A stretch of DNA of 64,000 nucleotides. Origin: Eledone cirrhosa. Lineage: Eukaryota. Shown here one piece after another: positions 15,080 to 59,162 of this stretch. Positions within the stretch are counted from its first letter, which is position 1. Every line of letters begins with the position of its first letter. Position numbers and translations under genes: made by a program. The stretch spans positions 93,434,001 to 93,498,000 of the forward strand of contig OZ024740.1 in assembly GCA_964016885.1 (NCBI GenBank), in the 5' to 3' direction. The notes under the pieces are model-generated. The model had not been told where the DNA came from, did not search any database, and saw only the letters and a list, made by a program, of their open reading frames with translations.

Positions 15080-15628
15080 TTGTAAAATAAATTCCCAAAT
15101 GCAAGCGCGAAGTATAATGAACTTGTTCATGTGACAGTTATAATTTCATTTTTAACCAATCAAATTACGCTTATAAAAGAATGCCTTCGTGAGCTACCGT
15201 TTTTTTTAAGTAACAAGTAATTCAAACACGAACTGGCGCAAAAGCTGATGTTCATATTCTCGTGACTGCATTAACCAACCAAACTTCACTCATATATGAA
15301 TAGACAACCTGAGACCCCCCCCCCTACCGCTTTGTTTGAAGGCACATATAATGAGAACTTTGTAACCTGAACTGGCGTGAAATTTATTATACGTATTCAC
15401 CAGCCAGCCAAACTACTTCTCGAAAAACCTAGCATTTCCAGCCACTTTTATCCATATAAAACAGAAGTAACATTCAAAGACCAACCAGATGTGAGAAAAA
15501 CCACAAACCCTCGATCTCAATTCTACTTTTGAAAAGAAGAAGAACTGCGAACCCGGTAAAGGAACCAAATAAATATATATTTAAAAAAAAAGACTCCAGT
15601 TGCATTTCAATATCAGCTTTTTCACTTA
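15080..15628 (+). mobile_element. Interspersed repeat family B (PLE-terminus-like, carries mutated U3-A8 HHR)
   Basis: Homologous to 32540-33090, 33310-33670 and 38328-38695; ends directly in (AT)n. Confidence 0.75.
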
Positions 15629-15886
15629 TATATATATATATATATATATATATATATATATATATATATATATATATATATATATATATATATATATATA
15701 TATATATATATACATTACATTTTGCTCTGGTACTTACATAGAGCACTCTTCACTTCTATGACCTTTTCTGCTTTCAACGGAAATTTCAATACTTATATAT
15801 ATATATATATATATATATATATATATATATATATATATATATATATATATATATATATATACATGGACATTATTAGAATGTTAATG

Positions 15887-16006
15887 TTGAGTTCAAATCC
15901 CGCCGAGGTTAACTTTGCCTTTCATCCTTAAGGGGTCGATAAAATAAAGTACCAGTAATGTACCGGGTAATTGCTGGCATTGAATAAAAAGTAGAAACAA
16001 TTATTA
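15887..16006 (+). mobile_element. SINE copy 3, 5'-truncated
   Basis: gagttcaaatcccgccgaggttaactttgcctttcatcc...aaagtagaaacaattatt. Confidence 0.85.
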
Positions 16007-16899
16007 CAATGTTAATGAATAGTAAATTAAATCTCAAATTTAAACGATGGTATATTTGCAGACATTGTTATTGTTGGTGTGATGCAAAGATGTATACTAT
16101 CCCTCACCCACACCCATCAACATCAATCCATCATTCCGGCGTTATATCCTACTTTGCTTCCATTACATTTCTTCCGACTCCATATCTTCTTTCTTCATTT
16201 CCAACCCATCCATCACTACCTTTAAACGTGCCCATAATCTCCATGTCCAACATATAAGTAGATCGCTCTTCTCTTCCACTACGACTCCATCTGACTCGAA
16301 TCTATATTATTGCCACCATGGTGACACCTGTACGTTCCTTTCCAACTTCATCTATTCTCTTGTAAATTAATTGTTGTTTCCATACCTGCCACACCTCTAT
16401 CGCCCCCTCGACTAATGTTGTACATGCCCTAGAATGCTTTTTTTGCGAGACCTTATAAATCAGAAAACAGGCCACCGCTGGATGAACTGATTTTCAGAGA
16501 ACTTGAAGGATATACGGCTTCACATATATAACCTCGTCTCTTATCATTTCCATACCCCACACCTCTTTATACATATCTCTGTCCTGGAGGTCATATTTTG
16601 TCACGTGTTGCCAACCTCACGCACCAGGGTCCAACAGAACTAGATTTTCCGCGTTGTGTCCACTTTCGGAAATGAATTTAATATCTCAAAATGTTCTTTG
16701 CTTTATGCGTACCCTGCACACAAGCCAATGCTAGCAGCTCAATACATCTGTCTACTGAGACTCCTACGGTTTCAAGAGTGTGCACATTCACTCCTCAATT
16801 TTCATACAGATTCATTACGGTCAGTATAAGTCTAACAATAGTTTTAACAGGAATACCATTAAAATGCCTTAATCTGCAATTGCCAATTCACACACGTAT

Positions 16900-17240
16900 A
16901 CAAACAATCCTGAGGTTGGGTTCTTGCTGCAATTGTATAAATAAAGACTACAGTCACCCAAGTAATATATTTTATGGGTGTAATGTTCATACACCAAGCC
17001 TTCATAAGGTTTACGTAGGCTTAACCACCAACATATGTAAGCAGCTTTTATACATGCACTCTCATTAATTTCGGCCACTTTTGGCTATATTGGGATTAAA
17101 ATGACAATAACATACAATGTAGTTTAAATTGAGAAAGCATATCTAAGTTTAGGGATTATAACATAAATAGAATACGTAAGGATATCTCTGTCGCTGAATT
17201 CCTGGAAATCCGTCAGCCATCAAATGTATTAAAAACAAAT
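16900..17240 (+). mobile_element. Decayed PLE GIY-YIG endonuclease fragment
   Basis: CNCINK..NIFYGCNVHT..KVYVGLTTN..KQ resembles PLE endonuclease motifs. Confidence 0.5.
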
Positions 17241-17689
17241 TAGAAGCAATTTCTGTTTCTGAACATAAAGTGTATAAAATAATTTTATATTACAGCACAA
17301 TAGTATAATCTAAGCGAACACATAGGGACAACATGCATATGATATACCACACCACGTGATAACTAAAAACAATCAAAGGCAATTTATATTATTACATATT
17401 ACACACACAAACCGACTCAGAGACACACACATGCACACACGCACACGCACACACACACACACTCACATATATATATATATATATATATATATATTTAGAT
17501 AGATAGATATATATATATACATATAGAGGATAACAATATATCGTTAAAGTTAATCCGATAAGAGGTTGTGAAAACTACTTATCATGGATAGTTTAAGAGT
17601 ACGGCGTTGTGTGACTCAACAAGAGGTTTACGTGGATGGCGAGTTTATGACTTCACTTGTATTCCTATGTAAGTATATCTTGGAGTGAT

Positions 17690-57322: not shown

Positions 57323-57559
57323 GGGAGCGAAGATATTTGTTTTCTCTACCCCCGCCACCACGAAAAGTTCGTAAATAGGTGGCTGGTCGGGGGACAGAGT
57401 TGTATCAGATACCCGTTACTAATCACTTTACTGTGTCGGCCGTCACAATCAGTTATCGCCGGCATGGGCTGGTGTTTAGATTGTGTCTAACGATTGTTTA
57501 TTGATTAGGCGATACCAGCCGATGAAACCACATGCACCGATTATGCATTGCTGCTTAAT

Positions 57560-58300
57560 ATATGGACTAACATTTGCTTCCTGAAGCTCCCATATTTCAG
57601 TGATGAAATTACTACGGCCACCCGCAAGGCCATCAGACGAGAGAGACTAGATATCCAGCTAGCCTACTCAGGAACTTTACGCGGACAGCCAGTCAAGAGA
57701 CATTCCACCAGACAATACAGCCTTTGCACGCTGGACAACTGCCCCATCGACGACACGGTCATATGCGACCAGGCATACATCGTCTATAGATTAGAGTGCG
57801 ACAAATGTAGCAATTTCTATATGGGGAGCAACACAAAATAATTCAAATTAGAATAACAGAACACCTCAACACTAATGCTTCCCCATTTAAGAAACATCTG
57901 GAGAAATGTAAAAACATCAACAAATGCAAAATAGTTAGGAAAGAAACCTAGGCAAACTTAGAATTAAAGAAGCATTAATTATAAACAAAACGCAACCACC
58001 AATCAATAATAGATTAGAACTCAACAGCCAATTTACATCTTCACGTATCCTCTCACACACACACACGCACTTAGACATACATGTCCAAACCTCTTAAAGG
58101 GAGACACCTCTTTGTCCACTTCACCTTATAAGTAGAATATAATGTTATACTACGTCCGGTCAGCTGGACTTGGCAACCTATTTCAAACAACACTGGATTA
58201 ATCCCTTTACTGTCCTTAGAATAAGAGATATTATCTCGAAATATCAGGACATATAAATAAATTAGGGTAAAACACTAATTGTCAGCGCTAACTTTCACAT
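57560..58300 (+). mobile_element. PLE 3' fragment (GIY-YIG) with decayed HHR at 58211-58251
   Basis: LKLPYFSD..IVYRLECDKC..FYMGS..EHL..KKHLEKC..EALII..PPINNR; UGUCCU uagaauaa GAGAU-AUU-AUCUC GAAA UA UC AGGACA. Confidence 0.8.
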
Positions 58301-58461
58301 TCATATACTATCTCCAAACCTGCATTGTTCTGCGTTTCTAACTTCAAACTTGTATATATACATATATATATATGTATATATATATATATATATCAAGTAA
58401 ATATGTTTTGAAACAGTGAGCGAGTTTGAACTTAGAAAATATATAGCTTTCACCGTATTTT

Positions 58462-58583
58462 TAACTAAAGGAATTTTAGCTTGATAACGGGGTTTAGAAC
58501 ACTCAGATAAATGGAAAAAGACGAGTTTTTCCATTTATCTGAGGGTTCTAAACACCGTTATCAAGCTAAAATTCCTTTAGTTA
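58462..58583. repeat. Near-perfect hairpin (~58-bp arms) ending at AT run
   Basis: taactaaaggaattttagcttgataacgg...ccgttatcaagctaaaattcctttagtta. Confidence 0.92.
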
Positions 58584-59071
58584 TATATATATAGGTATAT
58601 TGTATCTATTATTCCTTTTTATAATATTTTACATAACTCTGATATTGTGTCAATTTAATTATTCCGATTATTTTGTCTCTCATAATCATAGAGTAATACT
58701 GGTTAAGGTCGACAACATACAATCTCACATACTTGTGAAAAAATATGTTTATATATACATGTATATGTATGTATACACATATATTTGTATACCTCTCATT
58801 ATTGTCTCTAACTGCCTCACGGTAGAGTAACCACGGAAGTATAGTGACTGCTTTCAAGCAAACACTGTATACACTTCTAGTCAACCTTACCACCCTTCTG
58901 TAGCCTATGTATCATATCAATATCTCCCTCCGCCTCTGAGATATTATCACTGCTACAAGTGATTAATCCCCTTTCTTGACCGGTGTATCACGTGATAGAG
59001 TCTCCCTCCGCCTTTCTGAGATTTTCTCGCATGCTACGGACATATGTAGTTAGGGCTATTCCCTGAGGTGC

Positions 59072-59162
59072 TCCCTTGATAAGCTGGCTTACCTCACAAC
59101 AATGTTACATATCTATGATATAACATTATTGCATAGTGACCAGCGAAACTGTACAGTCGGGA
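59072..59162 (+). ncRNA. Type I HHR, U3-A8 core, extended stem II
   Basis: UCCC UUGAUAA GCUGG..(aatgtta/taacatt inner helix)..CCAGC GAAA CUGUACAG UC GGGA; lies between ~40-bp direct repeats at 58591 and 59173. Confidence 0.78.

Follow-up and report, generated by a model that had tools for sequence, protein, structure and literature searches.

Putative type I hammerheads with a U3-A8 core in repeat families of Eledone cirrhosa

We examined a 64,000-nt stretch of the Eledone cirrhosa genome (assembly GCA_964016885.1, contig OZ024740.1, positions 93,434,001 to 93,498,000; hereafter ‘the window’), in which three repeat families, designated A, B and C, contain hammerhead-like motifs with U3 and A8 at the core positions that hold C3 and G8 in canonical motifs. 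We consider it probable, at roughly three chances in four, that all three motifs are type I hammerhead folds with the previously published U3-A8 core, that they are located in the 3' end of a Penelope-like element (PLE; family B) and in two non-coding tandem families that are likely retrozymes (A and C), and that they self-cleave as dimers via helix III. The assembly spans 3.0 Gb and is repeat-rich, and the window itself (35% GC) is rich in (TA)n runs, inverted repeats, and fragments of reverse transcriptase (RT) and GIY-YIG endonuclease frames.

A type I hammerhead was defined by the core N3 U4 G5 A6 N7 N8 A9 / G12 A13 A14 A15.1 / U16.1 H17 together with a Watson-Crick 3-8 pair (numbering and consensus core as given in the accessible text of PMC4209133 and PMC3088659). 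A previous sequence-only reading of this DNA had described U3-A8 cores in a 320-bp satellite (A), in six copies of family B and at position 59076 (C), and regarded the three families as unrelated. All of these motifs were located as described (the coordinates for B corresponding to the ends of stem I), and the families align with one another no better than shuffled sequences: following removal of low-complexity sequence, between 7 and 66 of 100 shuffles score as high across five pairings. The cleavage triplet is GUC in A and C, and GUA in B.

Three families with U3-A8 cores

Family A provides the best evidence for covariation of the 3-8 pair. Its window array (27855..32417) has its hammerheads on the minus strand, a point absent from the sequence-only reading, and comprises 14 units of 320 bp, each containing a type I hammerhead fold with a U3-A8 core, a 4-bp stem II, a self-complementary 10-nt helix III and a GUC triplet. 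Position 3 lies at 27995, 28314, 28635, 28957, 29277, 29611, 29933, 30252, 30572, 30892, 31212, 31534, 31853 and 32176; U3 and A8 are present in all 14 units, and one of the copies retaining all 12 core letters is found at 28916..28961 (minus strand). An inverted pair of decayed units (38695..39659) places position 3 at 38976 on the minus strand and 39387 on the plus strand. This arrangement of non-coding tandem units, with a type I hammerhead in each, is one of the features expected of non-LTR retrozymes.

Genome-wide, the family A pattern has 1,781 matches, with three versions of stem II and several helix III palindromes. The same context with C3-G8 has 85 matches, which are 82–85% identical to the window unit; because this sister subfamily exists, the 3-8 pair of family A covaries. 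Among the first 100 listed of 1,694 family A matches (all on a single contig, C1), the pair is U-A in 94, C-G in four, C-A in one and U-G in one. In 15 hand-picked rows it is U-A in 11, C-G in four and unpaired in none, a result that represents one evolutionary event, of either direction, counted several times. In the same rows 94.7% of cells are paired, versus 17–46% in slid controls, with compensatory changes that are two-sided in stem II and one-sided only in stem I.

Family B is represented in the window by six copies, all with UUGAAAA and a GUA triplet, and with position 3 at 15529+, 32922+, 33483-, 33564+, 38498- and 38592+ (signs here and below denote the strand). GAAA and a full stem II are found in three of the six: an intact pair of inverted partners at 33450..33487 (minus; stem I CCUU/AAGG) and 33560..33597 (plus), and a copy at 38465..38502 (minus) with a 3-bp stem I. 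The copy at 32918..32955 (plus) retains the core with its first stem II pair broken, and those at 15525..15562 (plus; also with a stem II mismatch) and 38588..38625 (plus) have decayed to GAAC.

One family B pattern has 11,684 exact matches across the genome (control, 0). Changes at position 3 alone account for 99 matches (50 C, seven of them in one tandem array, 26 A and 23 G) and changes at position 8 alone for 46 (22 G, 14 C and 10 T), and no C3-G8 version was found in the family B context alongside the 11,684. We therefore conclude that U3-A8 is the transposing state of this family, and that the pair does not covary within it.

A GIY-YIG-like frame ends approximately 1.0–1.4 kb upstream of the family B hammerhead, and 18 of 20 loci encoding the family's GIY-YIG protein have a B hammerhead within 1.5 kb. 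Open frames of 775 aa contain 16 of the 150 listed matches; in one (locus L261) the GIY-YIG domain scores above its cut-off and RVT_1 just below (28.7 bits, E=1.3e-6; cut-off 29.6), with the hammerhead 1.14 kb past the stop of the open reading frame (ORF). No 5' copy of the hammerhead was found in the 1.8 kb before that ORF. Copies form inverted pairs, often with (TA)n ends, as PLEs are described to do in the accessible text of PMC8557442. The family thus displays the features of a PLE, namely a single ORF encoding RT and, C-terminally, GIY-YIG, with the hammerhead downstream of it, an inverted arrangement resembling pseudo-long terminal repeats, and a microsatellite target; judged from its frames, this PLE has been active recently, and family B corresponds to its 3' end.

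A 277-aa open frame at L261:1060-1891 overlaps the start of the 775-aa frame in another phase, and may reflect a frameshift, an intron or a second ORF. Many B copies in loci L001–L030 run from about 40–50 bases before the core to about 100 bases after it, where they finish in (TA)n, a pattern suggesting preferred truncation points.

The family C motif (59072..59162, plus strand) combines a U3-A8 core with a long stem II, a self-complementary helix III and a GUC triplet. UUGAUAA lies at 59076, stem I is UCCC/GGGA, and GAAA at 59145 is followed by the self-complementary CUGUACAG and then UC. This solitary copy, with all core letters kept, is a diverged relative of a young family, C', that forms tandem units of 591–595 bp (loci L012 and L044). 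The core is conserved between C and C', and stems I, II and III all change in pairs. C' also consists of non-coding tandem units with a type I hammerhead in each. Two candidate parents were rejected: a GIY-YIG fragment at 57509-58050, because its relatives diverge before C, and for C' the endonuclease at L255, two members of whose family (L262 and L268) cease aligning about 790 bases in. In all, 7 of 14 units of A, 4 of 6 copies of B and the copy of C retain every core letter.

3-8 states across the genome and in related PLEs

The genome was sampled at 137 regularly spaced 10-kb stretches (1.37 Mb, or 0.05% of the genome), which were scanned with positions 3 and 8 left free and with reversed sequence as a control. 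Both descriptors demand U4-G5-A6, A9 and GAAA; motifs with other core changes therefore escape both. Under the strict descriptor there were 63 hits (45 C3-G8, 13 U3-A8 and five other; reversed control, five), and the relaxed descriptor, at a score of at least 20, gave 149 (108, 27 and 14; reversed control, 11). The hits form 42 clusters, 21 of which have at least two copies: 17 are C3-G8 (one of these being a 1:1 tie with C3-C8), four are U3-A8 and none is mismatched. Other 3-8 combinations appear in eight single-copy clusters, roughly the control level, and no G3-C8 or A3-U8 family passed among the sampled 1.37 Mb. The data support the conclusion that paired 3-8 states dominate and that mismatched family consensuses are absent from the sample; had the proposed covariation been illusory, such consensuses should have been as frequent as paired ones.

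Further U3-A8 motifs outside the three families occur at L083:5892-, L083:662-, L041:3181-, L081:122-, L166:8962+ and L261:885+. The one at L166 is similar to the C3-G8 family represented in the window at 44966; it could reflect a further switch or a copy that has decayed. Retrozyme-like tandem repeats with canonical C3-G8 hammerheads were also seen at L074:8630-9683 and L043:5268-6069 (311 and 467 bp, respectively).

Related PLE families were collected from the genome's best GIY-YIG hits, and the hammerheads downstream of them were read. In a tree of 12 protein rows, the five U3-A8 rows, which represent four families (B, a second family termed B2, the L254 family and L270), fall on one branch (100/100), and one 3-8 change suffices once the L265 family is labelled C3-G8; this tree has no inferred root and is biased toward the U3-A8 clade, with four rows less than half filled and L270 a single locus. 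The labels of L279 and of the D row are those of the family rather than of the individual copy; L262 and L268 are unlabelled, and no hammerhead was found in their family. The four U3-A8 families have in common a CCGG palindrome and a GUA or GUC triplet. Their stems I and II differ, varying in pairs across proteins 51–57% identical to B, with U3, A8 and CCGG constant.

Since these families form one clade requiring one change, the U3-A8 pair of family B is inherited. The close C3-G8 sister of A requires at least a second double change, in either direction. The protein tree and the family A subfamilies together support at least two double 3-8 changes, rather than the three that independent origins in A, B and C would imply, with C unplaced; the sequence-only reading's proposal of independent double changes stands for A, which holds both paired states, and falls for B.

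Family B2, which that reading did not mention, has a U3-A8 hammerhead-like motif in the window at 38044..38081 (minus strand), with GCAA in place of GAAA (A13C), and hence lacks the A13 of a type I hammerhead. It has its own linked GIY-YIG family (L238, L240 and L260), and L260 contains a same-sense tandem with copies 6.5 kb apart. The A13C change creates a 6-nt palindrome spanning stem II and the core. B2 is the sole exception among the four families of the clade, the other three retaining GAAA.

Cleavage, its alternatives and other motifs in the window

If the motifs are active, two hammerheads, on one transcript or in trans, would associate through their palindromic helices III and cleave after H17. 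In the tandem families A and C', such cuts would liberate RNAs one unit long, which would form circles and be put back into the genome by PLE enzymes, as is reported for animal retrozymes in the accessible text of PMC7229834 and bioRxiv 10.64898/2026.07.22.740005; in family B, cleavage would shorten the element RNA close to its 3' end. Selection would act on transposing master copies, with genomic copies decaying afterwards. The computed energy of the helix III self-duplex is -8.3 to -20.1 kcal/mol, versus 0 to -1.8 for the hairpin. Most insertions of B consist of inverted pairs with the two copies on opposite strands, which prevents dimerisation within one transcript; same-sense tandems also occur (L260).

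Several observations weigh against this explanation. No PLE ORF was linked to family A at any of 30 loci examined, and no parent PLE was found for it; the endonuclease fragment that precedes C is part of a different element, which has its own decayed, C3-G8-type hammerhead at about 58217. The window's family A array shows no constraint on the core, at which 9 of 168 letters deviate compared with 291 of 4,001 elsewhere (p=0.45, with low power); this array decays at a neutral rate. B2 has 10,335 matches; of the first 100 listed, 98 have C13, as does every member of a set of 24 copies, and stem I is a weak, A-U helix. Predicted minimum free energy folds of A, B, C and C' monomers have no three-way junction, which fits a dimer and is no proof of one. 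As reported in the accessible text, pairwise mutagenesis rescued activity only with a G3-C8 swap, other double changes in the region giving low activity (PMC9901934), and minimal PLE hammerheads are weakly active even as dimers (Cervera 2014, PMC4209133). The first of these results contrasts with an earlier statement that covarying 3-8 pairs are active in vitro (Perreault et al. 2011, PMC3088659), and U3-A8 activity therefore likely depends on context.

We think it unlikely, although not negligibly so, that U3-A8 is instead dead or of low activity and has been retained for structural reasons or through descent, with transposition proceeding without cleavage and the pairing being an ancestral constraint. 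The failed rescue of U3-A8 in that mutagenesis, the neutral decay of the window array, and the flourishing of Naiad PLEs without canonical hammerheads (as described in PMC8557442) all suit such an account, as does the amplification of B2 to 10,335 matches despite A13C, since A13 changes are said to cost 10–100 fold (PMC4075628, in its accessible text). B2, however, is one family only, and the other three retain GAAA; paired changes in stems I and II distinguish the four PLE families, whereas U3, A8 and the palindrome stay constant; and family A has both paired states with no mismatched subfamily among the matches listed. A somewhat less probable extension of the favoured explanation is that B2, at more than 10,000 copies, is itself an active hammerhead in which the U3-A8 background makes C13 tolerable; it would then be invisible to GAAA-based descriptors. 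We found no literature report of a natural fixed A13C, and the supplements of PMC4209133 and PMC3088659 may list A13 variants.

The remaining alternatives are much weaker. A single ancestral switch, in which A, C and other non-coding families took their motif from the B clade so that no covariation recurred, would accord with the confinement of sampled U3-A8 PLE proteins to one branch and with the reported derivation of animal retrozymes from PLE terminal repeats (bioRxiv 10.64898/2026.07.22.740005, accessible text). We regard it as quite improbable, given the second double change demanded by the sister of A and the lack of detectable similarity among A, B and C. Hardly credible is the idea that the motifs arose by chance, or that C3-G8 cores decayed to this state under the bias of an AT-rich genome. 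The transitions required, C-to-U and G-to-A, are common ones, and AT bias (the window's GC content being 35%) may favour the direction of a switch; yet the reversed control yielded five hits versus 63, family B has few single changes and no C3-G8 copies beside its 11,684 matches, and the samples hold neither a G3-C8 or A3-U8 family nor a mismatched multi-copy family. The sequence-only reading had argued for selection on catalysis rather than decay, a claim that is in part overstated. The dominance of paired states (17, 4 and 0 of 21) speaks for that argument, and the fixed A13C of B2, the neutral window array and the non-independence of copies within a family qualify it.

At least seven further families have canonical C3-G8 hammerhead-like motifs in the window, at 34166+, 44966-, 46034-, 50569-, 54711+, 55352-, 56030+, 60769+, 61053-, 61618- and 62206+, several of them with a GIY-YIG fragment directly upstream; the copy at 50804- is C3-A8 and decayed. 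A supposed C3-A8 family at 50585- was rejected, the true core lying 16 bases further and being C3-G8, as was an A3-U8 motif at 4752-, which is antisense to an ORF resembling that of a long interspersed nuclear element (LINE) and has a core unconserved across eight copies. Broken PLE remnants of several families, with RT or GIY-YIG sequence, are found at 42130-44017 (minus), 51111-53357 (minus) and 57509-58050 (plus), and a broken LINE-like endonuclease/RT frame at 4198-5922 (plus). A 530-bp tandem repeat at 47203-48502 comprises about 2.5 units at 95% identity, and the strict scan called no hammerhead inside it.

Relation to known hammerheads

Families A, B and C are abundant new examples of a known variant and not a new class. 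As stated in the accessible text of the respective papers, U3-A8 was published in 2011 as occurring in several natural hammerheads (Perreault et al., PMC3088659), and in 2014 about 1,300 U3-A8 hits were reported in Schistosoma mansoni PLEs termed Cercyon (Cervera & De la Pena, PMC4209133). The suggestion of a common and under-annotated variant class thus holds as to frequency (13 of 63 strict hits) and fails as to novelty. Rfam at its gathering score had no matches in the window; because the window's canonical C3-G8 motifs were missed as well, that test does not discriminate. A literature search returned no paper on U3-A8 in tandem retrozymes, and unread supplements may hold such cases.

If active, the motifs would add tens of thousands of copies to the published variant, and descriptors restricted to C3-G8 and GAAA would undercount animal hammerheads (U3-A8 making up 4 of 21 multi-copy families as well as the strict hits noted above). 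In family A, the C3-G8 and U3-A8 states occur naturally against a background 82–85% identical, in which context-dependence could be tested. B and B2, two related PLEs of high copy number with GAAA and GCAA respectively, can inform the question of whether PLEs depend on hammerhead cleavage. We value these by-products (the family with A13C and the natural sister subfamilies with C-G and U-A) above the headline result.

The comparisons that follow are with the accessible text of the papers cited. Family B resembles the Cercyon PLEs of S. mansoni (PMC4209133) in having a type I hammerhead in the PLE terminal region, a U3-A8 core, more than a thousand copies, a palindromic helix III and a dimer model. 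It differs from Cercyon in its 4-bp stem II, in the absence of an additional base after A9 and in its signs of recent activity (the 775-aa frames), and U3-A8 is here mapped onto a protein tree in which one family adds A13C. Assignment to the Neptune-type, endonuclease-bearing (EN+) PLEs (Craig et al. 2021, PMC8557442) is by motif only, the tree having been built without reference PLEs. Families A and C' resemble the non-LTR animal retrozymes (Cervera & De la Pena 2020, PMC7229834; Li et al., bioRxiv 10.64898/2026.07.22.740005) in their non-coding tandem units, each with a type I hammerhead, and differ from those described in their U3-A8 core, in the 591–595-bp units of C', and in being known here from DNA alone. 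The core pair is the same compensated pair found in the natural U3-A8 variants of PMC3088659; unlike those variants, the motifs described here occur in high-copy repeats of a large eukaryotic genome, with a helix III of the dimer type.

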